Origin: Amoebophrya sp. A120
Taxonomy: Eukaryota > Protista > Dinoflagellata
Length of the DNA: 64,000 nt
Direction: 5' to 3'
Assembly: GCA_905178155.1 (NCBI GenBank)
Contig: CAJINV010000003.1
Location: 5,547,985 to 5,611,984 of the forward strand
Shown in pieces: positions 21,486 through 64,000 of the stretch (position 1 is its first letter; every line of letters begins with the position of its first letter). The translations under genes and the position numbers were made by a program. The notes beneath the pieces are model-generated. The model made no database searches. It saw only the letters and a list, made by a program, of their open reading frames with translations, and was not told where the DNA came from.

Positions 21486-24400
21486 TCACCTGAAATTTAG
21501 GAGCGCCCAGCCGGCCGCGGCGACATACACGGCGCCAGCAGCTGCGGTGACCGCCTGCACCGTCGTTTGAGCCAGCGCTAGCGTTTCACACAGAAAAGGA
21601 CTACACCCATAGTACTTAAGTATCTCCATCCTTTGAAAAATGATTGTTGCAGCTTATCGCGCAGCACGCGCCACTCTGCCTTGCATGTTCCGCAAGATAA
21701 ACGTATTTGGTCAGTACACATCGCCACCTCGTAATGAGCTATCATCATCATCATCATCATCATGTAGTGGACACCCGCACCGAGCGCCACAGGTCAAGGA
21801 TCCCCTCTCCGGTGGGTGGGCGAGGAAGCACTTTCGGCCTGGGCCTGCAAGTTGCGTTTAGCATGACAAGGAAGTGCCGCCATAATCGCGGTTCTCCCAT
21901 TTTCTATACATAGATGAACATGAGGTACAATTTATATATATCGCAACAGAAATACACTTTTTTTGTTTATTCCTGGCATGGGTACGGGTACTTTTCTTTG
22001 GATATCGCGGATTTATGGTGGTGGTCGTGGTGGTGGTCGTGGTGATGATCGGCTCCGTGTCACATGCAAATATGTCTTGGTCTGGAAAGTCAAAGTTGGA
22101 ACTGGTGCTGGCAATGCTGGTTATATATTCCTCAGAAATTTGTATTGCATGAGACCAACAGAAGTCGCAGCCTCTGTTGTGATGCAAAGCCGCAGTTTCT
22201 AATGCGGACTGCGCATGAGAAAGCTTTCTACACACTTCTTTTCTTATGCTGGGCTGCATGCGAAAGTGTTTCAATCGTCCACAGTTCAGCATCACAAGTT
22301 TCCAGAGCCAGACACATTTGCACTGAATACTCCGGAACGATCTGCCCCACCTCAACGCCCGGCACCCCGGTCGCAGTGACGGCTGCGTTGTATGACAATG
22401 CCCAACTCCCGCCCCTCTGATGCCGGAACGGCAACACAAGCAACGGCAGAAATGGGCGTTCCGCGTGACGAACCTACATACGGACTGTAGTACTGTTTCA
22501 GGTTTCGAAATTTGTCATGCAAACAGTGCTTCAACGCAAGTGGTGGATTCGGTATTTATTTCCATCACAAAAAATGAGGGGGAGGGGGAGTTGTGCACCG
22601 TCATACATTGATGTCGTTTTTCAGAACCTCCGCACGATCGGCGCTCAGCCCTGTCTCGCTAGGCCAGAACGTTTCCAGAAGCGCAAAGTCGTCGACACTC
22701 CCGCGCAGAGCGAAGGCAAAGTTCAACGTGAGAAACATATTCTCTCGGCGCCCCCGTGTTGTTTGTTCCACAGCGCTGGAAGGGGCAACTACCCCCACCG
22801 CGTACTTTATGCACATGAAAAGAAACGCCTCCTGAAGAACAAGAAACGCCTTGGTGATATAAAGAATCTTGATCTTCATCCCAATAAGGTACACAGACTG
22901 GGCAACGACCGGAGCAGAAAAGCACATCAGACTGGTCCATCAGCAGCATGGGAGGAAAGTCGGAACAGGACCAATCAGGCAGTGTCGTGCAAATTCGAAC
23001 ATTTTTCTGCATGTGCCAGCAACACAAATCGAAATCCTTGATGCATAACAGCAAAAAAAAAATCCGTGTCGCGAAAAGGCAGCCACGCGGTCCTGCTTTG
23101 ATTCAACTACAGAGTCTGAGGCTGCAAAATGTGCCTTAGTCATTCAGAATCTCTCTCATGCAAGAGAGAGAGAGAGAGAGAGAGCGAGAGCAGGTCCGGT
23201 AGTTGGAATAAACTTTCCACTCCAGCAGGCACATTTCGCATGTCGGAGGGCGGGGCACTTTTCATTTCGATACGTTGCCTGCGGTCTCCTTTATTATGCG
23301 CGTCGAAGAGCTCGGGCAGCAGCAGCAAACCCGGTGGTGGAGTTGTTGTTGTGATGAGTTGCGCAGAAACGACGGACAGAACTGGATTCTCCAGGTCGGA
23401 AATGGTCAAATTGGAAAGCCCCGACTGCTGCAGGAATGCTAGCGTGCCGTCCGCCATGGAACTTAGCAGGTCCGGGTCTTGCACCAGTTCCGTTTGGTCG
23501 ACGGTGTCGCTCACGGTCAAAATTTCCACGAATTGCCGCGGCGCGAGCCCTGGAGTCGTGGTCGTGGTCGTTGTCGTCGTGTCTTCCGCGCACCCCACAA
23601 AGTCTACCTCGGCCCCCGCGTCCGGGCAGAACAGGCGCGGGGCTTCGCCAGTGTACTGGGTCGTGTTGCACACTCTATCCCACAGAAAAAAGCAGGCAGG
23701 GTATATTGGTATTGGTATTGGTATTTGTAATGCAACAATAAACACACAGAAAGTTGTAGATCTGCCATGGGCGGCACCATAGCATTCTGTTTCGGATGAC
23801 CATGCGTGTATTCATGATTTTCATTTTTCTTTTTGCATATACGAGTATGACCTGCCTGCTTTTTTCTGTGCGATACACTGCACCCACTACCGCGAGCGCG
23901 TCCGAGCCGTTCATCGGCGGCAGCATACTATCGCTGGCCAGGAGCTGCTTCCAGTCCACACCTTCCACGTCGAGCCGGTCGCTTAGATACGAGTCCCCCC
24001 CGGGTTCCGTGCACCCCTGCTGGCAACACCCCAACAGGCAGCTCGCCGTTGGAAAACTGCCGTTTGCTAGCGCTTCGGCTTCCGAAAGGGCGATGCAGTA
24101 AGTATCCGGAAGTCTGCTGATATAGTACGCGTGGTCTGTCTGGTTCGGGGTGGGGCAGGTCACGCCCGCACATGTCGGGTAGCAGCTTTGCTCGCCACGG
24201 GAAGGCCAGCCGGACCGCAGTCGATAGTTGGCGTCGCAGCTTTTGCAGTATTCCGCTTCGTGCGCAACGCAAAACCCGGAGGTCTCCAGCTCGCCGTTGT
24301 GGCAAACGCACACGGTGGTCGTCGTCGTAGTTGTCGTCGTGGTCGTGTTCTCACCACACCCGACAAACTCCACCGCACTTCCGGCGGCGGGGCAAAAAAA

Positions 24401-27400
24401 CCGCGGCGGGTCTCCCGTATACTTCGTTTCATTGCAAACGGCCCCCGCGAAGGCCAGGGCCGCGCCCTCGTTCATGGGCGGCAGCATGGCATCGGCGGCA
24501 AGCATCTGCGTCCAATTCACTGAGGTCGTGTCCACCCTCCTGCGCAGGTTCGAGTCACCGGCTGGCTCGGTGCAGCCCTGCTGGCAACATCCGGAAAGGC
24601 ACCCGCTTTCCGGATAGGTCCCCTCGGCGAGCGCAGCTGCCTCCGGCAGCCCCAGGCAGTAGGTATCGCCCAACCGGCTGATGTAGTACGCTTTGTCAGT
24701 GATATTCGGGGTCGGGCACGTGACGCCGCTGCAGACCGGATAACAACTCTCTTCCCCCCGAGAGGGCCAGCCGCTCCGGAGGCGATAATGTTCGTCACAA
24801 CTCTTGCAGTATTCGGCCTCGTGCCCAACACAAAACCCCAAAGTCTCAAGCTCGCCATTGTGGCAGACACAAACGGTGGTGGTGGTCGTTGTGGTGGTAG
24901 TCGTGGTATTGTCAGCGCACCCAACAAATTGGATCTGGCCCCCGGCGGCAGGACAAAAAAACCGCGGCGGGTCACCAGTGAACTGCGCCCCGTCACAGAC
25001 AGCCCCTGCAAAGGCGATCGCGTTGCCGCTGGAGACAGGAGGAAGCATTGCGTCACTAGCTAGCGTCTGAGTCCAGTTTACTGCCGCAGTATCCACCCTG
25101 TGATATAAAAAAAAGTCGTTTTTTCGCAACCAAAAACTAGTACTCTGTTTGTCAGCATCAGTTTTAAGGCATTTCAAGCAGATTTACTTCACCATCCAAG
25201 TCAAGGCCAAAAAAAAAGACTCAAAGCACTCACATACCTCTTTTCCAGCTCTGAGTCCGCAGCAGGCTCAGTGCACCCTTGCTGGCAGCAGCCGGCAAGA
25301 CAGCTGGCCTCTGGAAAAACGCCTTCCTGCAGAGCTTCTGATTGGGAAAGGCCAATGCAGTAGGTGTCACCCAGCCTGCTTATGTAGTATGCGCTGTCCG
25401 TGAGGTTTGGCGTCGGACAAGTAACTCCCTCGCAAATGGGATGGCATCCATGTTCACCGGTCTCGGGCCAGTCCATTCGCAGGCGATAATGTTCGTCGCA
25501 ACTCTTGCAGTATTCCGCCTCGTGCCCAACACAGAACCCCGAAGTCTCAAGCTCGCCATTGTGGCAGACACAAACGGTGGTAGTAGTCGTTGTGGTGGTA
25601 GAGGTAGTCGTGGTATCGTCAGCGCACCCAACAAATTGGATCTGGCCCCCGGCGGCAGGACAAAAAAACCGCGGCGAATCACCAGTGAACTGCGCCCCGT
25701 CACAGACAGCCCCTGCAAAGGCGATCGCGTTGCCGCTGGAGACAGGAGGAAGCATTGCGTCACTAGCTAGCGTCTGAGTCCAGTTTACTGCCGCAGTATC
25801 CACCCTGTGATATAAAAAAAAGTCGCTTTTTCGCAACCAAAAACTAGTATTCTGTTTGTCAGCATCAGGTTTAAGGCATTTCAAGCAGATTTACTTCACC
25901 ATCCAAGTCAAGGCCAAAAAAAAGACTCAAAGCACTCACATACCTCTTTTCCAGCTCTGAGTCCGCAGCAGGCTTAGTGCACCCTTGCTGGCAGCAGCCG
26001 GCAAGACAGCTGGCCTCTGGAAAAACGCCTTCCTGCAGAGCTTCTGATTGGGAAAGGCCAATGCAGTAGGTGTCACCCAGCCTGCTTATGTAGTATGCGC
26101 TGTCCGTGAGGTTTGGCGTTGGACAAGTAACTCCCTCGCATATGGGATGGCATCCATGTTCACCGGTCTCGGGCCAGTCCATTCGCAGGCGATAACTCTC
26201 GTCACAACTCTTGCAGTATTCCGCCTCGTGCCCAACACAGAACCCCGAAGTCTCAAGCTCCCCATTGTGGCAGACACAAACGGTGGTGGTGGTCGTTGTG
26301 GTGGAAGTCGTGGTATTGTCAGCGCACCCAACAAATTGGATCTGGCCCCCGGCGGCAGGACAAAAAAACCGCGGCGGGTCACCAGTGAACTGCGCCCCGT
26401 CACAGACAGCCCCTGCAAAGGCGATCGCGTTGCCGCTGGAGACAGGGGGAAGCATTGCGTCACTAGCTAGCGTCTGAGTCCAGTTTACTGCCGCAGTATC
26501 CACCCTGTGATATAAAAAAAAGTCGCTTTTTCGCAACCAAAAACTAGTATTCTGTTTGTCAGCATCAGTTTTAAGGCATTTCAAGCAGATTTACTTCACC
26601 ATCCAAGTCAAGGCCAAAAAAAAAGACTCAAAGCACTCACATACCTCTTTTCCAGCTCTGAGTCCGCAGCAGGCTCAGTGCACCCTTGCTGGCAGCAGCC
26701 GGCAAAACAGCTGGCCTCCGGAAAAACGCCTTCCTGCAGAGCTTCTGCCTGGGAAAGGCCAATGCAGTAGGTGTCACCCAGCCTGCTTATGTAGTATGCG
26801 CTGTCCGTGAGGTTTGGCGTCGGACAAGTAACTCCCTCGCAAATGGGATGGCATCCATGTTCACCGGTCTCGGGCCAGTCCATTCGCAGGCGATAATGTT
26901 CGTCACAACTCTTGCAGTACTCCGCCTCGTGCCCAACACAGAACCCCGAAGTCTCAAGCTCGCCATTGTGGCAGACACAAACGGTTGTAGTCGTAGTGGT
27001 CGCATCGCGCAAAAATACTGCATGGTCACCATATACTATTTACAGTGCCTTTTTCTGTTACGTCTCTATTCGTCGGCTTTCCGCCTCCGTGGCGTCGTTT
27101 GAGCAAACACCTCGCATGCCAGACCAAATTCGCTTCCAAAATGCGTATGCAAAAGAAACGAAGACCTTCTATACACACTCTACAAAAAAACATTACACAA
27201 TGCCAATGCGTCCCTCTGCATTTCAAGAAGATCACGGTGACACTAGCGATTTTTCTTTTTGCGGATAGGTTGTAGTTGTCGTGGTGTTTTCCGCACATCC
27301 AACAAATAACACCTCGCTCCCCGCCGTTGGGTATCATGACAAAAGCTATTCTCTTCTCGAACTTTCAATGGAGTATTTGGAATTTCCCACGTCAAATGCT

Positions 27401-30400
27401 TATTTGCGTCCGGACGAAGCCAAACATTTTAAGTGCGATTCGAAATCGACGCAAGGGCAAGTCAGACCGCGGTTTTCACTGCGTGGTACCTACTTGCTCC
27501 ACGTATGAATGAGAATACGCTTTCAAGACGCAAACTCCTTCATCTCCATAAGGGGCAATAAAACTTCGGAGTGTGGAATCAGAATGACACAAGTGAGTCG
27601 CATTATTTTCTTTACAACTTCGCTTACGACTTAGCACCACACTTCGTAGACGTTGCTAATCGTCGCACGAAAATGCCCACGAACTTTCATGTGACGGCAC
27701 AAAAATTAAAACTCGGTGCAAATTAATGCATCTTCATGCAAATTAAGTTGCGACCGTAGTGAGCTCCTTTCACTTTACACACAGAGCGACTCGGCCAATT
27801 CGCGATGAGCCAGAGCAAAAGAAAATGTGTGTGCAGGAGCTTAATTGCGATTCATTGTGACGAATGTTCTCGTGTGATATGGAACGCTTCCCGTGTACTG
27901 CGTATCATTGCAGACGGCTCCAGCGAAAGGGATTGCTTCGTCGACGTGCCATTAACACGAAAACTACTGTCGCTCAGCTTTAGTTTTGAAGATGCACAAT
28001 TATAAGCATAGATGATACAAATTGAGCATGAGAAGGCGTCTTGCGTCTGCGACTGTAAAAGAAAGACTTCATCGTCAACAAGCTAGAAATAGGATGTGAC
28101 ATCAGTAGCAAAGTGGATACTTACGCAGAAAGCAGCTACGTACTCACACGCGACTCCTGTATTAAACTCCTTTACAAGCAAGTGACATTCTGCCAAATGG
28201 AAGCCGTCACGGTTACTATTCTGGCTGCAGCGCCAATCATTCAAATCATGCAAGTCCGCATTTTTGAAAGCACCAGGTGAGAAAGCGTCAATGTGCTGGT
28301 AGAATGACGAGCGCACGCTTCTTAGTTGTGCCATGTGCATAGTACATTACTCATCTTCAAGCATTTGATGCACAGCCGCGGGGCATCTGCGACTGGGAGC
28401 AAGAGGAAAAACCTTATCAGGACTGCTGCGACACCTGGCGTTTCCACCTTGTGCTTTTCGCAAAGCCACCAGCAGTTTTCGTTTATTGCTTTCCTCTCTA
28501 CTTCATAAAGCCATGGGTGGAAGCATACTGTCGCCCGTGAGAAGCTGGTGCCAGCTGAGTCCCGAAACATCCACTCGTTTTCGAAGATCGGATTGTGCGT
28601 CCGGTTCTTTGCACCCCTGGCGGCAGCATCCCGCTCGGCAGCCGGCTACCGGAAACTATCAAATGTAAAAATGTCTGGGTCTGGAAACTTGTGATGCTGG
28701 GTGGCGTCTCATGATGAGGCCAGAAATGCTGGCTCAGCATCACAAGTTTCTGAGCTTCTAGGTGTTGCCTATTCTGCATGACAAACTGCGTTTCTGCATC
28801 ACAGAAAAATGGAGCTCTTGGGTAACTTGCATGACAGATTTAAGAGTCATGCCAGACAAGCATGACAAACATGCATTCTTCCAGACCCAGACATTTTTAC
28901 ATTTGATAGAAACACGCCGGGCGCAAGAGCGTCGGCAGCGGAAATGCTCATGCAGTACGTATCCTCTAGTCTGCATCCAGAGTAAAAACGTCCCCACCTG
29001 ATAGTCATGTCAGATTCGCATACACAAGCCAAAAAAATTCTGGCTGTGTGCTGCGCATGACATAGTACACAGACTGTGCTAAAACTGCGGCAAAACTTCG
29101 CGCGCCAGATGGTTCATTGTGCAAGAAGACTTTCCTATGGGTCTGTGGTGTAGTCATGGTTTTGGTTATTCTTATTTCGTGCAATCAAGTTCCTTCTATA
29201 TCTTGTTTCAAGCAGCATAACAAATTCTCAGATATTGACATCGGCGAGCGCTTCGCATGGAGTCCTCCTCTTCCCGCATGAGGAACAATTTGCATTTGGT
29301 TTTGGGCACGGCACTTTAGTCGTAGATCCAGACTTGCATGACAAAAAATATTGGGTGAGGGCGTCGTTTTATTTACACAGGATATTCTGCTCACATAGTA
29401 AGACCCATCCGAGGGATCCGGTGCGAGGCAGGTCGCCCCCCCGCACGTGGGGAAGCAGCTTTTCTGCCCGTCAGCTGGCCAATTCTCCCGGAGGCGATAG
29501 TTGTCGTGGCAGCTGCTACAGTATTCCGCGAGCTGCCCTGGGCAGGTGCCCGTGCTCTCCAGATCCCCGTTGTGGCAGATGCAGACCGTGGTACTGGTAG
29601 TGGTGCTCGTGGATGTGGTGGTGGACGTCGTTGTGGTGCTCATACACGTTCCAACAAGCTGTTTCTGTTGTGGTTTCTATTTTTCTCAAAATGCCGCGCC
29701 GGCCTCTGAAACGCACTCGCAGAAAGCCGCCCCCGCCCCGTTCGATCAATACTAGCAACCGCGTCCACGACCTTCTCGATAGTGTAGTTGCAGCTGAAGA
29801 TGTCTGTACAAATACATGTACATCTCTCGGAACCTACAAAACCGCAAGCGGTGGCCCAGTTCGTTCGGAGAAATTCGGTTGGGTTGATCTTGTTGAGGGG
29901 TTGCGGAAAGCAGGGGTTGCGGGATCATAGGGTAGGGCGGGCTACTTGAGAGGCGGGCAGCTTGCGAGCGGTGGTTCGTGTGAGGGCCAGCTGTGAGAGA
30001 TCGGTGGCTGCGAGCAGGCCGGTCGCTCCCGAACGCCGCGCCTGCGGAATAGATCTGGCAGCAACAAACATTTGACGGCGGCGGCGATTTTTTTTTAGGC
30101 GTACTATGGCTCGCAGTGGACTTTGAAATTGTAAAAAGATAAAGAACATCAAGGGTGCATTTTGAAAAAGCGAGAACGCCTGCTACAGAAACAGATTTTT
30201 GGACGCTCATAGTCGTGCTCGTGGACGTCGTTGTCGTTGTGCTCGTCACGGCCTCGTCGCATCCGAGGAACTGTACCTCGCTCCCCGCCGCCGGACAGAA
30301 GAACTTGGGCGCGTCGCCGTGCCACACCGTTTCATTGCACACCGCACCCGAAAACGTCATCGCCCCGTTGCTGCTCATGGGCGGCACCATGTCCTGCTTT

Positions 30401-33400
30401 GTCAGGAGATCCTTCCACTCGATGGCACTCACGTCCACCTTCCGCAACAGGTCCGAGGATGCTGCCGGGGCCGTGCAGCCCTGCAGACAACACGAAGCCC
30501 TGCACGCCGTCACGGGAAACGCCCCGGCCGCGAGCGCCTCCGCCTCCGAGAGGTTATCACAAAAGGTATCAGCGAGACGGCTGATGTAGTACGAACCGTC
30601 GCTGACATCCGGGGCCAGACAATCAGCTCCCCCGCACGTGGGGTAGCAACTTCGCTGGCCCGCAGTTGGCCAGTCCACCCGCAGTCGGTACGTGGTGTCG
30701 CAGCTCTTGCAGTATTGCGCATCGATTCCCAGGCACAGACCACTGGCGTCTATGGCCTTCTCAAGTAGTTAGTACATTCCCGACCGCTCCTGCATGAATT
30801 TGGGATGCTAAAACAACCGCGCCGTGGTCTGTCCCCTCGTCCATTATCGCTACGGAAGCAAGCGGCCTCCGCAGGCGCTGGAAAGGAATTGTAGCAAACG
30901 TGAAAGGATGGACCGTGCGTGGCTTACATAATTACTTAGTTACAGATGATTCGGTGCGTTCTATACCCTATTTAGCGCGTCGAGAACTTGCTACGCGAAG
31001 AAACTTGATCGTGTGCAGTGTGCTAGTGCAGCTCCTGCGTGACGATTTCATGCAACAGTTAAGCATGTAACGTTTGAGAATCTCATAGTTTCCACGTCTC
31101 CGTTGTGGCAAACGCAGGGCGTCGTGGTGGTCGTGGTCGTGGTGGTACTCTCTGCACAGCCAACGAACGCAACTTCAGCACCCGCACTGGGGCAGTAAAA
31201 CGCAGGAGTGGCACCGGTGTATTTTGTCTCGTCGCACTGGGCGCCGGCAACTGCGATCGCGTCGCTGCTGTTCATACCAGGAAGCATATCGTCGCCCGCT
31301 AGCGGCTGCGCCCAATCAATGGCAGTTGTGTCCACCCTCTCCTCAAGCTCAGACGCAGGGGCCGGCGCAGTGCATCCTTTCTGGCAACACGCGTGCACGC
31401 ACCCTACTTCCGGAAAAGTGCTTTCCTTGAGCGCGTCTACGGTGGAAAGGCCGCTACACTCGGTACTGTTTGACTTCCTTATGTAATAAGCCTGGTCCGG
31501 TGCATTTGGCGCTGCGCAGGTAACGCCTGCACAGGTGGGGTAACAGCTTGTCTCGCCCGTCGCCGGATAGTCCACTTTCCGGACGTAGTTCGCGTCGCAC
31601 TCCTTGCAATGCTGCGCTTCGTGGTGCGCGCACTGTCCTGAAGTCTCAAGCACCCCGTTGTGGCACACGCACACTGTGGTGGTGGTGGTCGTAGTCGTCG
31701 TGGTCGTGGTGGTTGACGTAGTGGTAGTGGTGGTCGTAGTAGTCGTGGTAGTCGTGGTGGTACTCTCTGCACAGCCAACGAACGCAACTTCAGCACCCGC
31801 ACTGGGGCAGTAAAACGCAGGAGTGGCACCGGTGTATTTTGTCTCGTCGCACTGGGCGCCGGCAACTGCGATCGCGTCGCTGCTGTTCATACCAGGAAGC
31901 ATATCGTCGCCCGCTAGCGGCTGCGCCCAATCAATGGCAGTTGTGTCCACCCTCTCCTCAAGCTCAGACGCAGGGGCCGGCGCAGTGCATCCTTTCTGGC
32001 AACACGCGTGCACGCACCCTACTTCCGGAAAAGTGCTTTCCTTGAGCGCGTCTACGGTGGAAAGGCCGCTACACTCGGTACTGTTTGACTTCCTTATGTA
32101 ATAAGCCTGGTCCGGTGCATTTGGCGCTGCGCAGGTAACGCCTGCACAGGTGGGGTAACAGCTTGTCTCGCCCGTCGCCGGATAGTCCACTTTCCGGACG
32201 TAGTTCGCGTCGCACTCCTTGCAATGCTGCGCTTCGTGGTGCGCGCACTGTCCTGAAGTCTCAAGCACCCCGTTGTGGCACACGCACACTGTGGTGGTGG
32301 TGGTCGTAGTCGTCGTGGTCGTGGTGGTTGACGTAGTGGTAGTGGTGGTCGTAGTAGTCGTGGTAGTCGTGGTGGTACTCTCTGCACAGCCAACGAACGC
32401 AACTTCAGCACCCGCACTGGGGCAGTAAAACGCAGGAGTGGCACCGGTGTATTTTGTCTCGTCGCACTGGGCGCCGGCAACTGCGATCGCGTCGCTGCTG
32501 TTCATACCAGGAAGCATATCGTCGCCCGCTAGCGGCTGCGCCCAATCAATGGCAGTTGTGTCCACCCTCTCCTCAAGCTCAGACGCAGGGGCCGGCGCAG
32601 TGCATCCTTTCTGGCAACACGCGTGCACGCACCCTACTTCCGGAAAAGTGCTTTCCTTGAGCGCGTCTACGGTGGAAAGGCCGCTACACTCGGTACTGTT
32701 TGACTTCCTTATGTAATAAGCCTGGTCCGGTGCATTTGGCGCTGCGCAGGTAACGCCTGCACAGGTGGGGTAACAGCTTGTCTCGCCCGTCGCCGGATAG
32801 TCCACTTTCCGGACGTAGTTCGCGTCGCACTCCTTGCAATGCTGCGCTTCGTGGTGCGCGCACTGTCCTGAAGTCTCAAGCACCCCGTTGTGGCACACGC
32901 ACACTGTGGTGGTGGTGGTCGTAGTCGTCGTGGTCGTGGTGGTTGACGTAGTGGTAGTGGTGGTCGTAGTAGTCGTGGTAGTCGTGGTGGTACTCTCTGC
33001 ACAGCCAACGAACGCAACTTCAGCACCCGCACTGGGGCAGTAAAACGCAGGAGTGGCACCGGTGTATTTTGTCTCGTCGCACTGGGCGCCGGCAACTGCG
33101 ATCGCGTCGCTGCTGTTCATACCAGGAAGCATATCGTCGCCCGCTAGCGGCTGCGCCCAATCAATGGCAGTTGTGTCCACCCTCTCCTCAAGCTCAGACG
33201 CAGGGGCCGGCGCAGTGCATCCTTTCTGGCAACACGCGTGCACGCACCCTACTTCCGGAAAAGTGCTTTCCTTGAGCGCGTCTACGGTGGAAAGGCCGCT
33301 ACACTCGGTACTGTTTGACTTCCTTATGTAATAAGCCTGGTCCGGTGCATTTGGCGCTGCGCAGGTAACGCCTGCACAGGTGGGGTAACAGCTTGTCTCG

Positions 33401-34413
33401 CCCGTCGCCGGATAGTCCACTTTCCGGACGTAGTTCGCGTCGCACTCCTTGCAATGCTGCGCTTCGTGGTGCGCGCACTGTCCTGAAGTCTCAAGCACCC
33501 CGTTGTGGCACACGCACACTGTGGTGGTGGTGGTCGTAGTCGTCGTGGTCGTGGTGGTTGACGTAGTGGTAGTGGTGGTCGTAGTAGTCGTGGTAGTCGT
33601 GGTGGTACTCTCTGCACAGCCAACGAACGCAACTTCAGCACCCGCACTGGGGCAGTAAAACGCAGGAGTGGCACCGGTGTATTTTGTCTCGTCGCACTGG
33701 GCGCCGGCAACTGCGATCGCGTCGCTGCTGTTCATACCAGGAAGCATATCGTCGCCCGCTAGCGGCTGCGCCCAATCAATGGCAGTTGTGTCCACCCTCT
33801 CCTCAAGCTCAGACGCAGGGGCCGGCGCAGTGCATCCTTTCTGGCAACACGCGTGCACGCACCCTACTTCCGGAAAAGTGCTTTCCTTGAGCGCGTCTAC
33901 GGTGGAAAGGCCGCTACACTCGGTACTGGTTGACTTCCTTATGTAATAAGCCTGGTCCGTTGCATTTGGCGCTGCGCAGGTAACGCCTGCACAGGTGGGG
34001 TAACAGCTTGTCTCGCCCGTCGCCGGATAATCCACTTTCCGGACGTAATTCGCGTCGCACTCCTTGCAATGCTGCGCTTCGTGGTGCGCGCACTGCCCTG
34101 AAGTCTCAAGCACCCCGTTGTGGCACACGCACACTGTGGTCGTATCAGTTGTTGTCGAGTCAGTGCCACGAACGCAGTGCAGCGACTGCGGTATCAACAA
34201 ACTGAGCAGTCCAAGCAGCACAAGTGAGGAACAACGGCCTCGGATATTGAAACTCTGCGTCAACAGACGACGCGAATGCCCCCAGCAACCACTTCGCGGC
34301 GCACCTGAACCGCGTATCGAAAAGACAAAAAAACTTTTCGGCAAAAATCCCACGACGCATGCGCGTCTTTTTGCATACTTACGGAGGTAGTTTGTATACT
34401 TTATTTTCGACAT
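21486..34413 (-). CDS. Giant mucin-like surface protein: N-terminal hydrophobic segment, 12 copies of a 16-Cys domain (about 175 aa) with poly-Thr linkers, C-terminal hydrophobic anchor
   Basis: Repeat VCVCHNG.LETSG.C...C..CD..Y......P..G..SCYP.C.GVTC...YYI......C...GC...CC..GC...F.CP.AG..V.FVGC; SLVLLGLLSLLIPQSLHC near the N-terminus; reconstructed end INPR|ALAQTTVQAVTAAAGAVYVAAAGWALLNFR*; junction at 22740-23270 unresolved. Confidence 0.85.
21584..22004 (-). mobile_element. Degenerate introner intron
   Basis: IR cagaaaaggactacacccat / atgggtacgggtacttttctttggata; DR tagcg/tcgcg; element+5 removal yields the hydrophobic C-terminal exon. Confidence 0.7.
22058..22329 (-). mobile_element. Non-canonical introner intron, family A
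   Basis: TIR tgcaaatatgtcttggtctggaaa / tttccagagccagacacatttgca; DR ctccg at 22053-22057 and 22330-22334; gives QIVPE|PIITTT; body similar to 63176-63435. Confidence 0.9.
22391..22605 (-). mobile_element. Non-canonical introner intron
   Basis: TIR tatgacaatgcccaactccc / gggagttgtgcaccgtcata; DR cgttg/cattg; gives KNDIN|AAVTAT. Confidence 0.8.
23676..23875 (-). mobile_element. Non-canonical introner intron, family E
   Basis: 25-bp TIR with 1 mismatch (tatcccacagaaaaaagcaggcagg); DR cactc/cactg; restores repeat consensus GAV|CNTTQY. Confidence 0.9.
24800..26990 (-). repeat. Three approximately 700-bp tandem units, each with the same canonical GT-AG intron (25098-25237, 25805-25943, 26505-26644)
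   Basis: Near-identical units; AAGAG|gtatgt...tcacag|GGTG gives ELEKR VDTAA. Confidence 0.92.
27003..27267 (-). mobile_element. Degenerate introner intron in poly-Thr linker
   Basis: catcgcgcaaaaa / tttttgcggata; DR ggtcg/ggttg; joins TTTT|TTTT. Confidence 0.75.
27332..27550 (-). other. Non-canonical TAT...ATA intron (decayed introner)
   Basis: DR ttggg/agggg; joins micro-exon KFYCP to (S/T)AGSEVLFVGC as required by the repeat consensus. Confidence 0.65.
27572..27879 (-). other. Non-canonical intron (decayed introner)
   Basis: DR cggag/tggaa; joins YTGSVP|KFYCP. Confidence 0.65.
27950..28507 (-). other. Non-canonical intron (decayed introner)
   Basis: Subterminal IR acgaaaactactg / cagcagttttcgt; element+5 removal joins LPPMA|VDEAIPFAGAVC. 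Confidence 0.6.
28657..28908 (-). mobile_element. Non-canonical introner intron, family A (perfect TIR)
   Basis: Perfect 30-bp TIR tatcaaatgtaaaaatgtctgggtctggaa; DR gaaac at 28652-28656 and 28909-28913; removing 257 nt gives GVF|PVAGCRAGCC. Confidence 0.95.
28974..29384 (-). mobile_element. Non-canonical introner intron, family C
   Basis: catccagagtaaaaacgtccccacc / ggtgagggcgtcgttttatttacacaggata; DR gtctg/ttctg; gives YYVSR|LEDTYC. Confidence 0.85.
29641..30211 (-). mobile_element. Degenerate introner intron in poly-Thr linker
   Basis: IR cgttccaacaagctgtttctgt / acagaaacagatttttggacg; DR gtgct/gtcgt; joins Thr runs in frame. Confidence 0.6.
30751..31087 (-). mobile_element. Non-canonical introner intron
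   Basis: IR tatggccttctcaa / ttgagaatctcata; diverged DR; element+5 removal gives consensus HNGDVE|TSGLC. Confidence 0.8.
31140..34140 (-). repeat. Five nearly identical, intronless 615-bp coding tandem repeats
   Basis: Identical shadow ORFs recur every 615 bp (31208, 31823, 32438, 33053, 33668); only a few substitutions in the last unit. Confidence 0.97.
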
Positions 34414-36120
34414 ACATGTTTTTGAAAGTACAATCCCTTGGTCGCTACGATTGGAGTTCGACGATGGTCCAAATCCTTTATGTTTACCATTTCCGTTCGA
34501 CAGGAGTCTTTAATCCTTCATGGAAGCGGAAATACTTTCCGTAATCCAGCAGAAAGTAGTGCAAGACGAAACCTCCAAGAAGGAATCCCGCGTATTAAAT
34601 GCGGCTTATGTATGGAAAAGGGCTTATGTGCAAAACCTCCGTGAGTGCCACTTCTACAGAGTTCTAGGTTGTCTTTTCCAGCATAGCAGCACATCCGCAA
34701 ATATCCGCAGCGCCATGCACCATCTGTGTCGTCAGGTACAATTTGGGAAAATGCTCCTGCGGTCGGGTCCCAGGGTGAAAAATACGGCGAACACTACGGA
34801 CCTCGTGCTAGTAGTGCTGGTAGAAAGATACTTACTCCAAGAGGCAGGGCGAAGGGCGCAGTCAAAATCTTCTGTCAGCGTATCACAGCACTCGAAAACG
34901 CTGATATTTCCGTGCAGCAGCCCGGCCGCAGCTCTCGTCGGTATTAAAATGTCACGCCGATGAAAAGATACTGCGTAGTACACGCGACCACCGTTCTGCT
35001 CGACGAGTAAGAAAAAGGCTGTGGCTGAGCAAACGCTGCCGCTGCGTTACGAAACGACACTGACTCCCTGCTGGTCCCAGCAGCATCAGTTGTACATCAT
35101 CAAGTGGGTCATTATGTTCGAAAGAGCTGTGACGCAGTCCAAACAGAAACATCTTGCGGTGACAATTGTAAACAGGCTGATAATATCGTCGATCTGGTAG
35201 TACATACAACTACCGGTCCGATGGTGTACAACGCGCGTACTTAATGCAGCTGACGAAAGGTTGCCGCCTCCAGGTGGGAACTGATGGGCCCATCGGGGCT
35301 TCGGATTCATGCTCGGAGACTACTTACCGTGACGCTGAGCGTTCCTGTTGCACTTGCAACGAGGCACAGACCTGTACTATGGAAGATCAAGAGATCATAG
35401 GTGCATGCAAACCGAACAGTTTTCCCAGCACCCCCCTGCGCAGCGTCAAGCGGTCCCGTGACGCTCATCCGTCTATAACCTTCGACCGCTTGGTCTTGGT
35501 GCTAGCTCACCGGTGGTATCCATTTGCCATTCAGTTCTTTGGACTGCGCAGTCAAGACAACAACGACGTGGACAAAAATCTATCCATGTAGCTGCCACAT
35601 CATGATTTGATTTTGAAATGTCCACATAGCAAGCAAGCGTATTATAGCAAAGATATATTCAAATCATGGAGATACTTACCTGTATACCGTATTCTGTATT
35701 CTTATTCTACATGTAATCATATTAAATCAAGCCTACTTCTTGGAAGACGGTGTGCACGTGTAGTGCATCATACCTAGATTGTATAATATCTCGAGTGTCC
35801 TAGTAGCACCATCAGGGCTTTTTCATTCTTGTTCTGCAGTCCAAATTCGGTCGAGTTTTAACTTGTCGAAGCCGCGCAGAGCGATGAAGAATAACCCGCG
35901 CAATCAGCGGCGAGAATTTCAACATAATAAAAATAGATTTTAGACTTGACATTCTTGTTTTCCTGGCGACCGCGACTTCAAAAATTTTGATTTTACACAG
36001 AATATTTTCGATATTTTTTCCCCCTACCTAGTCTAAGCATCCCAACAACCATGTACTCATCTTCATGGACATGCCACGACAACGCGGAGCTTTGTATCTT
36101 GATTGAATTGCGGCGGTCGT

Positions 36121-39100
36121 TCAGGCTTTCTTTGGGCTTGTACCGATTGGTGGGGTTGTCGTAGCACTGCTCTGCAGCATATCCAAATGAAGAATCTCCC
36201 CTTCGCAGACTCCTATTTCCTTACGCAAACAGCACCTGTGCTGCGCAAGGGGATTCCACGCATGTTCATCTACATGGCTCGTTGAGGTCTGCAGTAGTGC
36301 AGCTGCGAAGAATTGGTCTCTTGTAGAGGCACACGTGTTTTTACAGATGACCGCCAGAAAAATCTATAACTCCTTGCGTACATAAATCCAGCATCATAAC
36401 TTCCTTTTTGAGTACTTACGTATGGGCAAGTGGGAGGATTTTTCCTTACGATACTGCACTGTTGTGAAGGTCTGACTGAAACGCGTCGTCAAGCCTTCTG
36501 CTTTTTCCTCCACAACGTCTGCTTTGTCCAGAACAGACACCGCTAGGTCATGTCCCCGTTGTCCAAACCTTCCCACGAAAACGTCTTTGCTTTCGCCGCT
36601 GTCCACTAGGTGTCGCACTACGTCTTTGGCCTCCTGGACGGTCTGCACCTTCTGAAACCTCTCACTGTGGTCCATAATGACGGTAAGCTCGTCGGTACTC
36701 AGCTTTTGAGTCGAGAGTCTGGCAGACGCTTCCTCTGCGGCAATCTGTTCTATCAGGTCGGTCATGCCCGGCAGGCCCCGTTGCAGTTCTTCTTCCGTTA
36801 GTTGCTTCACTTTGTAGGTGCCTCGAACTTTCAGCGCAATACCGGTCCAGATCGGAATGATCACGCACACGAAGACGGCCATAATCGCAATTGCGTGCAG
36901 GTGCACCGGTATGCAACCGGGCGACCACGACAGCTCTTTGTGCTGCGACCTGCACTTCTGCTCCGATAAGCGAGAGCTCAAGAAAACCAAATGCATTTCG
37001 AACTGCGGTGCATAGTCTCATCTGCTACCTACTTACTTTTCAACAACTATGTCTATTCACGGTTCTGTAGCAGGTACGTGGCTACTAGTTGGAGATCTGT
37101 TGTAGCCACAAATCAGCATCATTTGAGTAAGGGAAGGATGCATTTCTGTTCATGATATGTCATGTTCGCCAACATAAGCCACCACGTTAGGTTGCTCTGT
37201 CCTACCTGAATCACGGGACGACCGGGCTCCGGTACAACAGTCGGATACCCTGTGTAAAAACGTTCCGCCAATCCCAGACTTGTATGTAATGCAGCTGCAC
37301 ATTTGCACGTCGAACGTGTGCACTTACTTACTTACTTAATTTCGTCCTGCAATCGTCAAGATAGACAAGTGACTCTGCTGCAGCACCGGCGTGCTGCTCC
37401 CCGGTCGGCACTACATAATAAATTGCAGGCTGACGCCTGTCATGCGCAAGCGCAACTCGCAAAAGTTCTGCATTAGTGTAGCAGAGGCAGAGCTCCCATC
37501 CTGATTATGGGGCGGATACACTGTTACACAAGGTATCGGAAAGAACCGATCTACCGGTCGCTGCTTCATGATATACCAACGACCCGGCGTGTCCATCGAA
37601 TCATAATACAGCTGCGTCGCTGCCTATCAAACAGGAAAAGTTCGTTCTTACGATCACTCATCAACGATCTTGCACCACAACAACGTCTGTGCTGCATCAA
37701 AAGGCACCACGGTCCTACTTAATTAATACGTATTTTCGTTTTCGTTTTTCCTTGTTGTGTTTGTGCGACCTGCAAAATTACTAGTGACCCCCCCGACGAA
37801 CTTTTTCCTCTCCATACTACCACTGCTATGACCAAAATAGTCGCGTACCACGCGACTTCGAGCTGCGGTTGCGGATGTGTTTTTTCGTGATTTACCCATG
37901 CGAACATGATAAACGTCTGAGTGCTATTGCTGTCAGTGTCACCAGATTCTTTTAGATTAACCTCTGAGTGTGAACAACCAAGGAAGGCGAGATGACATCA
38001 AGCTCAACGACAATACGGAGGCACATATGATTTCGTTGGAGCATTAGACCCACTGAAACACAAAACAAAAATTGATTGGTATACTATAATGACGAGTACT
38101 ATTTGCTTAAGGTATACCAGATACAGTCCTTTCATGTTGAAGTCGTAGTAGACAAGGAAGATCCAAAGGTCGCGCTTCCACCCGCTTCCCCCCGCATTCT
38201 TCTTCTTTTTCTTGTGGCTCCCGTTCGCGCGAAGCCGTGAATCCTCCTCGCGAGCAAGCTGCTCCTCCGCAGCGCGAGCCTTGCGGCACTTATTCCCTTG
38301 CAAAACGTCACCACTTCCTTCATTGCCATGATGCACATCTCACCATATTGATGAAATTCGCGAGGGAGCACAGGAACACATGCATGTGACCTCTGGAAGA
38401 AAAACGTGCACGCGTGCGCACCTCATGTGGCCCCACAGAAGACACGAGCTTCCGGTCATCGTCCTCGGGCGAGGTCTTTGGTAGAAGTATTGAAAAGGCT
38501 TCCTTCGCCACTGTGATGCCTAGTTTCGATTTCCTTCCGAGCCAGAGATTCCCACGCAATGCAACCAAAACCGCGGAGATCACACTTCAAACGTACCGCC
38601 CAGATTGAAATTTGCGTCAAAACAAATCATAGAAACTTGTTTCGTTTCGCAGGGTGGAAGTAAGCGGTGGCCCTCTTGACAGGGCAGGGCTCCTCTGCCC
38701 CATTACCCCATGTGCACAAAACATACCTGATGGCAGTGTGAGCGCTGAACAAACTGGACGCGAGCATAAGTCACATACAAACCTTTTTCACCATCTAAAT
38801 CTCACTTGCTTCATCTTTTGGTGGCAAGCCCAAGCATCTCTTAGCCAACCACTGGGCCGAATAAGTATGCAACTCGGCTGGTGCTTCGGATATGTTGGAA
38901 TGGGAACGTTTTCACACAGGGTAGCACTCTTGGCGTAGCCAGTCAATGTCAATAACGGTATACTTGTCCGCTACAAGAGCCTTCGCCAGGACCAGCAGCA
39001 TACTGGAGAGGTATACCCACACCCCAAACGAAGCCACGGTGTGGAACTCGCTTTCCCTTGCACGGTAGCGGTCGTCTTCGTGAAACATCACCTGTAGGTA

Positions 39101-45469: not shown

Positions 45470-46478
45470 TTGCTCTTCGATGCTCGACTCAGAAGATGTC
45501 CCTCAAGGAGAGTTAGAATGTCGTGTCGCTGTGAAGATGCTTGTAGTTTGCTGTTGAAGGAGTCGATAGTACACCTATTTGATCATCAAATATCATCTGT
45601 AATGTCTACATTTCTCCAAAAAAGTATTTGAGCATCAAATGTCTACTCTACGTATCTCGGTCGAGCGACTGCAACACGCACGACAGTGATTAACATACAG
45701 TGTTCCACCTTCACCAAAGGATTCCCTGTTGAAGCATCGCCTGCAAATTATCGACACACTCCGTGTGTCCTAGATCGAAGATGATCCAGTGTCTTTCTTG
45801 GATCCTTTGACCTCTTCCACTATGTTAATACTCTGTCGGGTGGATCGCAGCTCATTTAAAGATCCATTTAGATCTGATTGATTTGCAGATTGAAACACAG
45901 TCTACTATTCTGCTTTGCTCAGAGGGTGTTTTTTGCACGTATGCAGTTTTGGGACCTAGGGCAGGAGACAGCTATAGCTTCAGAACCCGACGCATCTTTC
46001 TGTTTCTATGTCTTGTACATACGCTCAGTACATTTCGATGGACCGTTTGACCTTGCGCGAGCTTAGAACCAGTGAACCAAGCGTGAAGACAAGAAGGCAA
46101 AAAACGCAAACCGCACGGTTTTCTTTCACGCCCTCCACGGAGTAGCGGCGCTTCGATCTTTGAACGAGGAAATTGGCTACTGGCCTGATGAATTGCTGCT
46201 CCTTGTTGAACATGCGTGCGCACACATTCAGCATGTATGACTCAATTCACACTCATGGCGGGGACGAGAATGCTTTTCAGAGGCCGTAATCATGGTTCGA
46301 AACTTCAATTGCAATGCATCTGAAAAAGTGAAGAGCTGACATCTTACACAGGGTACTTTTCATCCTGCAGAAGCAGAAGCACGGCTGGCTATGTAGTAGG
46401 TGAAGTGGATCCGTCCCCGAGCCGGCGGCCTGTCCCACCAAAAAGTTGATTGTTCGGGTTCTTTTTGGCGTGCACTCC

Positions 46479-49232: not shown

Positions 49233-49277
49233 TCCTTTGTGTAGGTTTTTGTTTTCTTTTTTTTGGAAACTGATGAG

Positions 49278-49804: not shown

Positions 49805-49897
49805 CCCCTCCTCAATCGCTGCGGCGGTGGTGCTAATCTGGATAGCGTCCTACCACACTCCCCTCCTGAGCGCGCTGTGGTGAACTAGCTATCCCCT

Positions 49898-59144: not shown

Positions 59145-62100
59145 TCACACGTCGAGAGATGTGAGCATGGCGCAGCCGCGCTTGACCCAATGCTTGGCCT
59201 CGTGCGTCTCTTGAATGGGCACGCGCATAGGCGTATGCATTGCAACTATCTCCGGGTCTCGAAACTTGGCATGCTAGTTTGTGAAAGGTGGGCGCACTGC
59301 AATGGATGCGTAGCCGAGCACGACAAGTTTTTGACCTCCAATGTGTTTCGTTTCCCGAATGGAAAACTGCGTTCTTGTATGACATTCCACAGGCTTTCTT
59401 TCTGGTTATGCATCACAGAGTTAAAAATCTGCTGTGAAATGCATGACAAACTTCCACTCTTCCAGACCCAAACATGTTTGCAATGCATAAGGCATGACGA
59501 AGTTGGTACTGTGACCGGTTGTCGACAGGACGCCTCTGCGGGTGCTGATCTTGTAGACCGGACAAGAGTAAAAGCGGAACTCGTGCAGCTCGTCCTTTTT
59601 GCAGGGCGTGATGTGCACCATCGGCACGGACGTGAACAGCACTTTAGGCTCCGATTCCGCCAGCGCCCACTCGTCCCAGTCCCATCTCGCTCCCTCCAGG
59701 AATAGCCCATATGTATACACGCCGTCGGCTGTAAGTGTTGCCAGACAGAGCATTAGCGCAGTTCAATCATCTGTCTGTCTTTGTGCGTAGACAATTGAAA
59801 ATGAAATGGACACTGGCGTTGGCATCACAAGTCAAAGCAACATCAGAAAAACACAATTTCTCATGGAAAAGTTCATGCAATGTTCATCTGTACTTAAATT
59901 CATGTGCTCCTACCTCGTGAAGAAGTAAAAATCATATAAAATTACCAGGTGGCTTCGTTGGTTTTTGCTCCTTTGGGTAGTAGAAATCGAAGATCAGGGT
60001 GTCGATGGGGATTGTGTATTTTCGAGCAAAGTTCTGCGACGCGCCGGTGGTGAAAGCCTGCGTGAAGAAAATGCCGGAGATCCAGAAGAGCGCCGGCTTC
60101 CCGCGGTCGATCCAGTTCTGGTAGAATTTGAGGCGCTCGAGGAGGTCGCTCACGTACCCTCCCAGCGGCTTCAGCGAGGGATACGAGGACGCGAGCCACA
60201 TCACCGGCGTCTTCCCATCGAACATGTTGAAGAACGCCTCCTCCAGCTGCGCGCTGAGCAGCGCCAGACCCTTCAGCGCTTTCAGAATCTCCTTCAGGGA
60301 CTCCCGAATCACGTTGGTCAACTTGTTGTACCTGGTCACCTCCTGGAACAGGACCGTGTTCATACTTTCCTCGTACATGACCGGGTACTTCTCCTGGACG
60401 GCCGGGATGTTCCACGGCTTCGGCAACCGTGCCAAAATGTCGTTGGCCACCTCCCGCACCAAGTCCTCCGGACCCGCGCCGCCGCCCCCAGAGGCCTGTC
60501 CGACGGTCTTCAGCAGATCAGACATCATCTGATACGTTTCCCCTTGCTCCTTGGTCAAATTCGCGTTCTCGTGGAACCCAAATACGCCCGGTGGTGTCAC
60601 TGGTGTTGAGAGTACAATGTGATTTTCATTTTTCGAAGTAAGTCTGCAGCGAAAAACGCGCACAAGTGGCTACGCTCTGTTATACAGAGGTCGGAAATCA
60701 AAGTGCTAGAGACGCGCTGTGCAAGTTTCCTTATGGAGGTTATGCACAGAAACCACATAAGCAACAGCGAGCGAGAACCAACTGAGAGAGTGCTTTCATC
60801 TATTATACTTGCGGAATATTTTAGCAAGGCAGTTATGTCTGCTTGTGCGAGAATCAAATAAAGTATCTACCCAATGGCAAAGACTTGATGTGTGCCAGTA
60901 CACCGTCAAACTCCTCGTCTTCTGTCAGTGGGTACAGGGGCTCACCGGCCATGCGGTACTCCCCATCAAAGATGGTTTCGTCAAAGTAGTCCCGTAAAAG
61001 GGTCATGATCAGAATTCGATCATTCCCGTCGGTAACCCTGCCCCCGTAGTTGCACTCGCCCGTCATGTAGGTTATTGCCTAGATACAGGAGTGTTTTAGT
61101 CTTTTTCAGCAACATGGAACGTGATGCAGATTCTGATTCGTCATTTGCTTTTTACAAAATTGATGACTTAAGACGCAGCGACAAGTACAAACAACAATGA
61201 ATACGCTGTCTCAATAAATAAGCCCTTGCTACTTACAAGTACAAATAACATAATAAACGGAGAAAAATCAGAATGCATTGTGTGTACCTTGAACGGCATC
61301 TTCTCTTGTTCGTCTATGAACATCTTGAGCTGCATGACTGAGATGCGCAAGTCGTTTTCTGTAAATTCGTAGGGAATGTTCCATCCGAGAGGGCCGAAAA
61401 GTTTCCGCTCCTGATCCATATCCTGCGAAAAAGTGTACTAGTAGTTGCTGCAAGTGGATTACTATGAGTATCTATGACATACCAGGACCCTAATCGGACC
61501 GTACCACCAGTAGAAACCCTGGCCCTGCAACATGCAAACCTAAGCCTGACGTGTATTCTGGTATGGCCAGCTCACGGTCACGACCACAGCGCCCTGGATA
61601 AATATACCGTCGCCTCTTGGAAGTAGAGAGACAAGAACTCTACTCCGAGCGGAGGACTCCTAGTACCACTGACTAGTACGACTCTTTTTACTCGACTTAG
61701 ATGACTGCGTGGAAGAAGCAGAGACCGTAGAGCAGGCGCTTGAATTCCCGAGGTTTCTTGCACCCGTCAAAGAAGTCCGGATCTGAGATCGGGTTCATGA
61801 GGTACGACCCGGTGAGGTTGGATCGCAGTCCCTTGGGTGCTTCGTTCGTCATTTTCAGCCCGTTCTGCAAGATTGCCACCGGGAACTGGTTTGATGGGTA
61901 CGAGGTGAGCCACAACCGGTATTCCTTGTGCAGCTTCCGCGCGTCCTGCTGGTCCAGCATCTTATCCAGTTTGGGCATCCAACTGGTGGCCAAGTGGCAG
62001 TTCTGCAGCAACACCCAGCCGCCGTCCTTCTTTCCGTCCGCCATCAGCTTCTCGGCCTTGGGCCCCTGCCCCTGCCCCAGCGAGATCGCCTGGATCTCCT

Positions 62101-64000
62101 TGCCCTTCTCCAGCGCAAACTTGTCCAGTGCCGCTTTCGGGTCACTGCCGGGCGACAGCACAAACACCAGCGGAATGCCGTTGCTGCTGTCCGCGAAACT
62201 CCCGGCCAAGTCAAAGGGCGGCGGGTTCACGAAATCCTCGCCCAGCTTGCCGGCGACGTACAGCATAATCGCGGGCACGAGCCGATCTGGCCGGAAGGCG
62301 CGCAGAAACATCAGCTCCTCAAAGTCGTCAAACCCCTCCAGGGTTTTTGGCGCGAGCGCACGCAATTTCTGTCGTATCATTGATATTGTGTTGACGTTGA
62401 CACACAGACACTGTCGCTCAAAATTGCGAACGAGATACGATTCTTCGATGAAAAATCATCGATGCGTTCTTGAATCTTGATACGAGGGCTCCGTGCGATT
62501 GAAATAGATCGATGCTGAATGATGCACAATGAATTATATACTATTTCCAGCTGTGCTATAAAGGAACGGAGACGGAAAAAATGTTGAAACATGAAAGGAG
62601 ATACATTTAATGGATCTGTATCGTCGTAGGCTTGTTTCATCAGTTCCAGCTCCTCGGTAAACTTCGTGTCGACGCCTTCAAATTTCTCTGCAACCTTTCC
62701 CAGCTTGAAGACCTCTGCCCAAGTTCTCACAGGAATCCAAGATGCCGGCATCTCAGGCGGCTGCTCCATACTCACGCCGCCGGTCAACAGATATCGATAG
62801 TTTGACATGTCTATTATGCCATCCGCCAAAAACAGTCGTGCGCACAGAAGGAACGAAAACAGCAACTTGTGCCTGTAAAAATTATCGACCAAGTCCATCA
62901 TGCGCAGCTTGAAGATTGCAAGCACCCCAGATAGCTTTAGCTACACCCTCGAGGACATCTTCGCACAGCACTGACTAACACTCATCTTCAGTAACGTGGA
63001 TGCAGCAACTTCTACGCACCACGACCACCCGGCCTACTATTAATTATAGCTTCCAATGAACAATAGTTCGAAGCTGGTACTACAACGACTACTGCTATTA
63101 GCTTACCTTTCAAACAGACTGCGGCAAATGTTGCGGTAGAGGTTGAGGCGAAAGAAGTCGTTGATGTTGAAGATGTATGCATTGCAAATATGTCTGGGTC
63201 TGGAAGTTTGGAACTTGTAATGCTAGCCTTCCATATCTAGGAAATCTGTATTGCATAACCAACAAAAGTCGCAGCCTCTTTTGTACATGCAGCAAACACG
63301 CAGTTTCTCATGCGGATTGCCTATGAGAAAGCGTTCTGGAGGAAAGTTGTCATGCTAAATTGCAGTCGGAACTGTTTCCATCATCCACATTTTAGCATCA
63401 CAGGTTTCCAGACCCAGACATATTTTCATTTGATAAGATGCGCTGGTCCAGCTCCGAGGCTTTTTCGGCGCGCTCGATGGAGTTGAGGAACAAAGCCGTG
63501 TAGAAGGGCAGGGAGTACTGGTACATGGGATCGATGTTCGCCAAGTCCTGGATACAGAAGAACATCACGCTGGCTTTGAAGGCCACCGGCACGTAGGTCA
63601 CGCGCGCCTCGTCGATCTTGATCTCCGTGGCGGCGCCCACCTCCTGCTTGGCGGCGATGTCGTTGGCGATCACCTTGGACTCCTTCAGAATGTTGATGGC
63701 GGACTCGTCCTCCAGAATGTTGCCCTGGGACTCCGACAACACGCGCAGGATCTCGTTCTCGCAGTCCTCCAGCGCTTTCTTGTTCGCCGCGCCCTCCAGC
63801 ACCAGTTTTTCCTTTTCCTCCGCCAGGTCGGGCCGCTCCTCCTTCACCACGAAGTTGAGAATCTGGTCCTGCAGCCCCACCAGCGTGATCATGAAGTTCA
63901 GCAGCGTCACCTTCACGGCCACGTCAGGGAGGTAGTGCGGATTCCGCAGCTTCGTGGTCATGTAGAAGAAAAAGTCCTTGGAGTACTCGATAATGGACTC
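59145..64000 (-). CDS. Axonemal (inner-arm type) dynein heavy chain, 3' part (AAA5-AAA6-C-terminal domain); 5' part outside window
   Basis: MTTKLRNPHYLP, IDPMYQYSL, CRSLFERHKLLFSF, LSPGSDP, SLGQGQGP, WVLLQNCHL, QERKLFGPLGWNIPYEF, NYGGRVTD, GLFLEGARW, GHSTNFV, HWVKRG; GT-AG introns 62873-63106, 62369-62604, 61079-61287, 60600-60870, 59729-59945 plus three non-canonical introns. Confidence 0.96.
59234..59489 (-). mobile_element. Non-canonical introner intron, family A, in dynein
   Basis: tatgcattgcaactatctccgggtctcgaa / ttccagacccaaacatgtttgcaatgcata; DR aggcg/aggca; gives HSTNFVMP|MRVPIQETHEAKHWVKRG. Confidence 0.93.
61419..61699 (-). other. Non-canonical intron (decayed introner) in dynein
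   Basis: Subterminal IR aaaaagtgtactagt / actagtacgactcttttt; element+5 removal gives the conserved FFHAVI|QERK. Confidence 0.7.
63176..63435 (-). mobile_element. Non-canonical introner intron, family A, in dynein
   Basis: TIR aaatatgtctgggtctggaa; DR agatg at 63171-63175 and 63436-63440; removing 265 nt gives DQRI|FNINDFFRLNLYRNICRSLFE. Confidence 0.95.

Follow-up and report, generated by a model that had tools for sequence, protein, structure and literature searches.

A probable fixed register for the removal of non-canonical introns bracketed by diverged direct repeats in Amoebophrya sp. A120

The elements and their host genes

The window analysed here, a 64,000-nucleotide (nt) stretch of contig CAJINV010000003.1 of Amoebophrya sp. 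A120, contains non-canonical introns that carry terminal inverted repeats (TIRs), are bracketed by 5-nt direct repeats (DRs) and interrupt genes on the minus strand, the strand of all genes modelled in the window. The evidence supports one register for their removal, in which the intron starts 1 nt before the terminal TAT and ends 4 nt after AT(A/G). Below, "core" denotes the element from TAT to AT(A/G), and k the number of upstream DR letters that stay in the message when the core plus 5 nt is taken out; the register is k=4. The features on which the argument turns are as follows (window positions; DR pairs as upstream/downstream copy).

23672..23876, minus strand: non-canonical intron of 205 nt in the paralogous repeat gene B; core 23676-23875, DR CAGTG/GAGTG; k of at least 1
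27200..34509 (ends approximate), minus strand: host gene A, with Cys-rich units of about 175 amino acids (aa) and Thr-rich linkers
27328..27551, minus strand: further element; core 27332-27550, DR CCCCT/CCCAA; frame restored by removal of core + 5 nt
27568..27880, minus strand: further element; core 27572-27879 (TAT...ACA), DR TTCCA/CTCCG; frame restored by removal of core + 5 nt
27946..28508, minus strand: old non-canonical intron of 563 nt; decayed TIR, DR GGCTT/GCACG, T-TAT start, ATG + 4 nt end
28653..28909, minus strand: young family element of 257 nt; perfect TIR, identical DR, same family as the copies at loci L001-L147
28970..29385, minus strand: non-canonical intron of 416 nt; 1 nt + core 28974-29384 + 4 nt, DR CAGAA (29385-29389, upstream)/CAGAC (28969-28973, downstream)
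29637..30212, minus strand: non-canonical intron of 576 nt; core 29641-30211, DR ACGAC/AGCAC
30747..31088, minus strand: non-canonical intron of 342 nt; core 30751-31087, DR GAAAC (31088-31092)/GACGC (30746-30750); protein consensus only
59145..64000, minus strand: 3' part of an axonemal dynein heavy chain gene, with three element introns and five canonical GT-AG introns
59230..59490, minus strand: non-canonical intron of 261 nt in the dynein gene; core 59234-59489, DR TGCCT/CGCCT; k of at least 1
61415..61700, minus strand: non-canonical intron of 286 nt in the dynein gene; core 61419-61699 beginning TAA, DR TCATC/TGGAT (1/5 alike); k=4 or 5
63172..63436, minus strand: family element with identical DR in the dynein gene

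Five of these elements, with cores at 23676, 28974, 30751, 59234 and 61419, had been described in the original prediction, and all five were found in place on the minus strand with their 5-nt DR pairs. Two ends depart from the TAT...ATA form given there: core 28974 ends in ATG and core 61419 begins with TAA. A scan blind to the DRs returned 33 candidates in the window, 19 of which have DRs alike at 4/5 positions or better, against a permutation mean of 1.25 (maximum 8). Block-shuffled windows gave 6-15 candidates each, so that roughly one candidate in three is probably a false one.

Copies within the window are 68-85% alike. A pattern scan of metagenome contigs located 147 further loci (L001-L147), all in one other assembly, whose copies reach 96% identity to window elements. 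An exact 5-nt DR at fixed offset accompanies 107 of the 132 second-assembly copies that retain both inner anchors, with the flanks at background (22-33/132); seven further copies attain 5/5 if one end may slide, one of them a case with a 4-nt DR. By these counts the DR behaves as a 5-nt target-site duplication (TSD). Of 95 family copies, 46 could be aligned, 23 lying one way in genes and 23 the other way. Strand at these loci was assigned with a codon model; tested on 24 window elements, some of them in genes on which it had been trained, the model was right for 23. TIRs, a TSD of constant length and insertion in both orientations are traits that the elements share with miniature inverted-repeat transposable elements (MITEs).

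Variant copies also occur. Elements starting TAC or TAA lie at 37246-37535, 38291-38923 and 61419-61699 in the window and at L059, L077 and L079, a pattern suggesting that intron position +4 tolerates change and that +2/+3 do not. Family elements with a 4-nt DR are present at 10581-10841 (minus strand) and at L140:76-330, where a measured cut would lose one base from the message.

Joins across the elements in likely RNA contigs

Contigs of sequencing runs X1 and X4, from one sample and at a depth of 3.8-4.5, were compared with window positions 27010-31670. That these contigs derive from RNA is a guess, and contigs drop rare variants. Ten joints were listed over this interval, four of which join exons across elements. 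The remaining six, in family copies or Thr-rich repeats and with 20-28 letters on one side, were set aside as spurious.

The most direct information comes from the joins at mismatched DRs. The join of 28969 to 29386, present in contigs of both runs, takes DR position 5 from the downstream copy, which fixes k at 4 or less and yields the protein sequence SRL. An AGA-ATA join at this junction had been named beforehand as an outcome that would overturn the proposed register; no such join is among those listed. The base that had been predicted here was thus the one seen in the contigs, while the "consensus" SRL invoked for it amounts to one paralogue within the window. A second join, of 27945 to 28509, occurs in one X1 contig with 30 letters on its short side and permits no slide, placing the register exactly at k=4. 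The join of 29635 to 30212 (X1 and X4) can slide by 2 and allows k=3-5, and that of 28651 to 28909 (X1) slides by 5 across identical DRs, so that its register is not resolvable. A single contig of 543 nt lacks four consecutive elements, and the two exon pieces listed for it (143 and 250 nt) contain 0 other letters, an agreement that favours RNA over an allele without the elements. The interior of 28970-29385 has zero depth in the contigs. With seven elements taken out at k=4, gene A is open for 1528 aa.

No RNA read crosses the junctions at 30751, 23676, 59234 or 61419, and no join is listed for the first of these; 27572-27879 and 27332-27550 have no RNA cover. Among runs of raw reads, X9 gave 0 reads, and the 92 reads of X8 match only part of one repeated element. 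A protein search over 3883 candidates returned no transcript-derived copy of gene A. Two side observations concern the same gene: a 165-nt X1 contig lies wholly within intron 27946-28508 (28161-28325) and could be precursor messenger RNA, DNA carry-over or excised intron, and a 16-nt micro-exon (27552-27567, minus strand) separates two of the gene A elements.

Protein consensus at mismatched repeats

Genes A and B are built of repeats, with 615-nt units 98-99.5% identical and units of about 707 nt about 90% identical, and the intron-free units offer a consensus against which a mismatched DR can be read. The motif ETSG, found in 9 of 11 intron-free units (not independent copies), requires k of at least 4 at 30751 and bears out the original assignment of positions 3-4 to the upstream copy. 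At 23676, Gly-Ala in 10/10 intron-free units likewise takes position 1 from the upstream copy (k of at least 1), as had been proposed.

In the dynein gene the comparison extends to other organisms. The column at 59234 is M/I/L/V with 0 T in the 76 of 120 homologues that carry the motif, again assigning position 1 to the upstream copy as predicted. The junction at 61419 had been set aside on the ground that it reads VIQ either way; this does not hold, because its DR copies are alike at 1/5 positions and the site is informative. Its column is I/V/L/A/C/T with 0 N or D among the 104 of 120 homologues that carry the motif, and k of 6 or more leads to a stop codon, so that k of 3 or less and k of 6 or more are both excluded. 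With the three elements (at k=4) and the five GT-AG introns out, the dynein gene gives 958 open codons that align with homologues over their whole length. Named dynein matches among the best 25 are mostly from dinoflagellates at 59-65% identity, a schistosome protein standing first by expect value; a search of proteins of 442-2000 aa found no near-identical dynein. For one exon of genes A and B a protein search found no homologue, and Pfam applied to 25 exon pieces (19 from the second-assembly loci, 6 from the window) found no family that decides a mismatch.

A probable common register

Taken together, the three informative contig joins and the protein columns support the claim that 4 nt of the upstream DR and 1 nt of the downstream DR are exonic. 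The registers allowed at seven junctions intersect only at k=4, and they do so even without the pinned join of 27945 to 28509; if k were random, any common register would arise with P=0.029.

Several observations weigh against this reading. The two newly added junctions alone give P=0.083. Two elements found after the P=0.029 count, and not included in it, lean elsewhere: 27572-27879 towards k=0 (A in 2/11 units, V in 0) and 27332-27550 towards k=5 (S in 5/11, T in 0), both on weak consensus, which leaves k=4 compatible with 7 of the 9 informative junctions. The unit that holds both has 40 of 175 residues unseen in other units, and 21 of 62 in variable columns, in a comparison for which gene B units were only partly parsed. 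The RNA comes from one sample and low-depth contigs of guessed status. When 25 DRs with a single mismatch were polarised by codon likelihood, to see whether mismatches gather at upstream position 5 and downstream positions 1-4 as predicted, 16/25 favoured k=4 (p=0.11) and k=1 scored equally; an informal tally by eye of mutation direction (GC to AT) found no clear pattern at DR positions 1-4.

Codon phase offers a separate view of the junction. At k=4 it falls between codons (phase 0) in 63 of 121 oriented copies with perfect TSDs and in 73 of 144 with DRs alike at 4/5 or better, while pseudo-junction controls are flat across phases (394/374/413). Roy et al. (bioRxiv 2020.10.14.339549) link bias of this kind to splice bases that have been recruited. 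None are evident in the elements here; neither G at +1 nor any single TSD base is enriched over the phase-matched background (p 0.09-0.89), and selection for residual GT-AG is therefore not demonstrated. The TSD bases match that background and do not explain the phase-0 excess. TSD positions 4-5 are non-independent (p=0.007, small counts), with GT 2, AT 1, TT 3, CC 2 and CT 9 of 121; GT may be scarce because it would create a rival 5' site one base further upstream, or through a bias at codon boundaries.

A model for removal by a relaxed major spliceosome

We considered how elements with such ends might be removed. At k=4, all nine tabulated junctions have N-T-A at the intron start, and GTA opens each of the five canonical introns in the dynein gene. 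The first intron base is any of A/C/G/T and the last two vary, GT-AG occurring in 7 of 144 oriented copies; the GT (GC/GA) start and AG end of U2-type introns are thus lacking, and U+2/A+3 are present. The two ends of the elements are also unequally conserved. All 20 of the 20 strong window elements retain the 5' T-A, and the mirrored 3' T-A is changed in two of them (22058, 28974) as well as in 27950 and 29641 (both ending ATG) and at the confidently oriented loci L044 and L001, for a total of six changes at the 3' end versus none at the 5' end.

These features point, with moderate confidence, to a relaxed major spliceosome as the likely agent that removes the elements, reading T-A as the +2/+3 of a normal 5' splice site. 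Insertion would create a 5-nt target duplication, and the intron would then take 1 nt of the upstream copy and 4 nt of the downstream copy, restoring the message at any target, whichever way the element lies. U+2 and A+3 would still be needed, G+1 and the terminal AG no longer; the 3' cut would be placed by its distance from the U-rich tract and the AU(A/G) at the mirrored end. A hairpin between the ends would aid young copies and be dispensable for old ones. Published structures offer a rationale: the P complex of yeast has G+1 paired with G-1 and U+2 paired with U6 A51 (bioRxiv 10.1101/212811), so that +1 and the 3' AG could relax together. The top A120 motifs of Table S4 of Farhat start N-T in 9/9 cases and those of strain A25 start TT in 9/9, and the A25 inverted repeat (IR) starts with TTA and two purines (PMC7789003). 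Both fit a +2/+3 signal shared by the two strains, to which sliding of the aligner may contribute.

Other points weigh against this mechanism. BLAT-type sliding towards T at +2 may itself shape such a table, which we down-weighted for this reason. Transposition itself could demand T-A at the element end, an explanation that would leave the asymmetry between 5' and 3' ends unaccounted for, and folding of naked RNA can miss stems that proteins stabilise. The published account of A120 also describes the sites as variable and reports U1 as not detected (PMC7789003).

A less likely alternative keeps the same fixed register but has it set by a hairpin. The paired TIR ends would be recognised as a structure, with cuts 1 nt ahead of the stem and 4 nt beyond it, made either by a nuclease and ligase outside the spliceosome or by a factor that reads the structure, much as in euglenids. 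Folding gives young copies perfect stems at their ends (P about 1.0 for 28657 and for 23676), and in 4 of the 6 changed 3' ends the change to ATG leaves the first U of TAT in a U-G pair. A code of like shape has been genetically defined in Euglena (N3-CDG / CH'G-N5-6, then R; PMC12501133), and the failure to detect U1 would suit such a route. However, the predicted in-register terminal stem is absent from two RNA-supported introns, 27950 (P 0.00) and 28974 (P of at most 0.04), and also from 30751, 61419 and the terminal pairs of 63176; overall the terminal triplet is predicted to pair in register in 3 of 9 introns, partly in 1 and not in 5. A hairpin also gives no reason for T-A at +2/+3 in elements of both A120 and A25 type, and U2, U4, U6 and most spliceosomal proteins are reported as present (PMC7789003). 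We also considered a bulge-helix-bulge cut of the transfer RNA type. In that case the 3' cut falls 6 nt after the inner helix, not 4.

It seems improbable that k instead differs between introns or wanders within the repeat, with k=4 the commonest value or a chance intersection. Support for this comes from the legends of Fig. 3 and S23, which call the sites variable with IRs 1-5 nt away (PMC7789003), from the several frames found within one Polarella introner family (bioRxiv 2020.10.14.339549), from the 4-nt DR variants (10581-10841, L140) and from the leanings of 27572 and 27332. Yet k=4 suits all three informative RNA joins as well as four protein columns that hardly vary, the two columns that disagree with it are variable and lean opposite ways, and published variability is expected because alignments run across identical repeats. 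Finally, it is very hard to credit that the joined contigs come from DNA in which the elements are absent, in some other allele or strain. For this reading, the RNA status of X1 and X4 is a guess, and intron 27946-28508 contains one X1 contig within it. Against it, a single contig lacks four elements that differ in age and shows no other letter in its 143- and 250-nt pieces, the DR at 27950 has diverged at 4 of 5 positions, and depth inside 28970-29385 is zero.

Comparison with known systems and implications

The A120 elements themselves are already known. They have been described as introner elements with an IR of TAT, 7 variable nt and an A run, 8-20 nt in all, and a 3-5 nt DR at the borders (PMC7789003), and the elements analysed here agree in having an IR at both ends (decayed in 27950 and 61419), a DR over the borders, genome-wide families and removal without GT-AG. 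Sizes of about 150-630 nt, organisation in families, mixing with GT-AG introns and genes on one strand are common to both (Farhat 2021). What would be new is the fixed register. The accessible parts of the published account give no fixed register or dinucleotide signature and call the borders "variable" or "unknown"; they leave cut position and cutting agent open, state that more than 60% of introns break GT-AG and that U1 was not found, and report that no autonomous transposase was found in A120 (PMC7789003). Nor did we find such a register in the literature on introners, Amoebophrya and splice sites, in which subscription journals are mostly uncovered, or in the available portions of PMC11282704, PMC12130899, PMC13326754 and PMC12621601, the last two of which do not treat Amoebophrya.

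The closest parallel in form is provided by the nonconventional introns of euglenids (PMC12501133, PMC11170887), which likewise lack GT-AG and have fixed unpaired spacers, a probable MITE origin and paired termini, the last predicted here for some copies. Their code, CDG/CH'G with spacers of 3 and 5-6 nt, differs from the UAU/AUR with 1 and 4 nt seen here, and the lineages are unrelated; N3-CDG / CH'G-N5-6 is absent from the present elements, whose ends read N1-TAT / AT(A/G)-N4. Unlike euglenid introns, old Amoebophrya copies lose predicted pairing and carry a 5' motif that mimics GUA. Introners of Polarella, Symbiodinium, Micromonas and Aureococcus share the TIR and TSD and have splice sites straddling the border between TSD and element (bioRxiv 2020.10.14.339549, PMC11282704). 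Polarella class 12, for example, has a 5-nt TSD and uses its last base together with the first base of the element. Those introners, however, need G+1 and a 3' AG, select their targets and often occupy several frames, whereas GT-AG is rare in the Amoebophrya elements. The non-canonical introns of Fritillaria (PMC11282704, PMC13326754) are also MITE-derived, depart from GT-AG and involve a modified major spliceosome; they differ in preferring AG-AC/AG-AT ends, in retaining a modified U1 and in belonging to an animal lineage.

A fixed register would have practical consequences. Gene models could be put right where the repeats have diverged, and direct tests would follow, in that the register names the bases to mutate, directs a branch-point search and sets expectations for changes in U6 or Prp8. 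It would also explain how a target-blind transposon could flood coding sequence harmlessly. More tentatively, and we would put the chances of this broader proposal somewhat short of even, the tens of thousands of seemingly ruleless introns may share one code, N-UA...AU(A/G)-N4, read by a U1-less major spliceosome without G+1/AG-1 and with the 3' cut set by distance, A25 having converged on the same +2/+3. If so, an element could occupy any coding site in either orientation with the protein unchanged, and the GU/AG pair would be dispensable genome-wide while U+2/A+3 are kept.

Other features of the window

Gene B (about 23300-27100, minus strand) adjoins the paralogous gene A, and both consist of Cys-rich units of about 175 aa and Thr-rich linkers; a surface or adhesion role for the pair is a guess. 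Rfam gave 0 matches on 27000-64000. Elsewhere, the window contains a Copia-type long terminal repeat (LTR) retrotransposon at 49276-55462, with direct repeats of 530 nt that are 96% identical and an RVT_2 open reading frame at 49898-53713, a long open reading frame at 42998-45502 (minus strand) with a weak JmjC/cupin match, and a 15-nt tandem array of 8.7 copies at 6809-6940.

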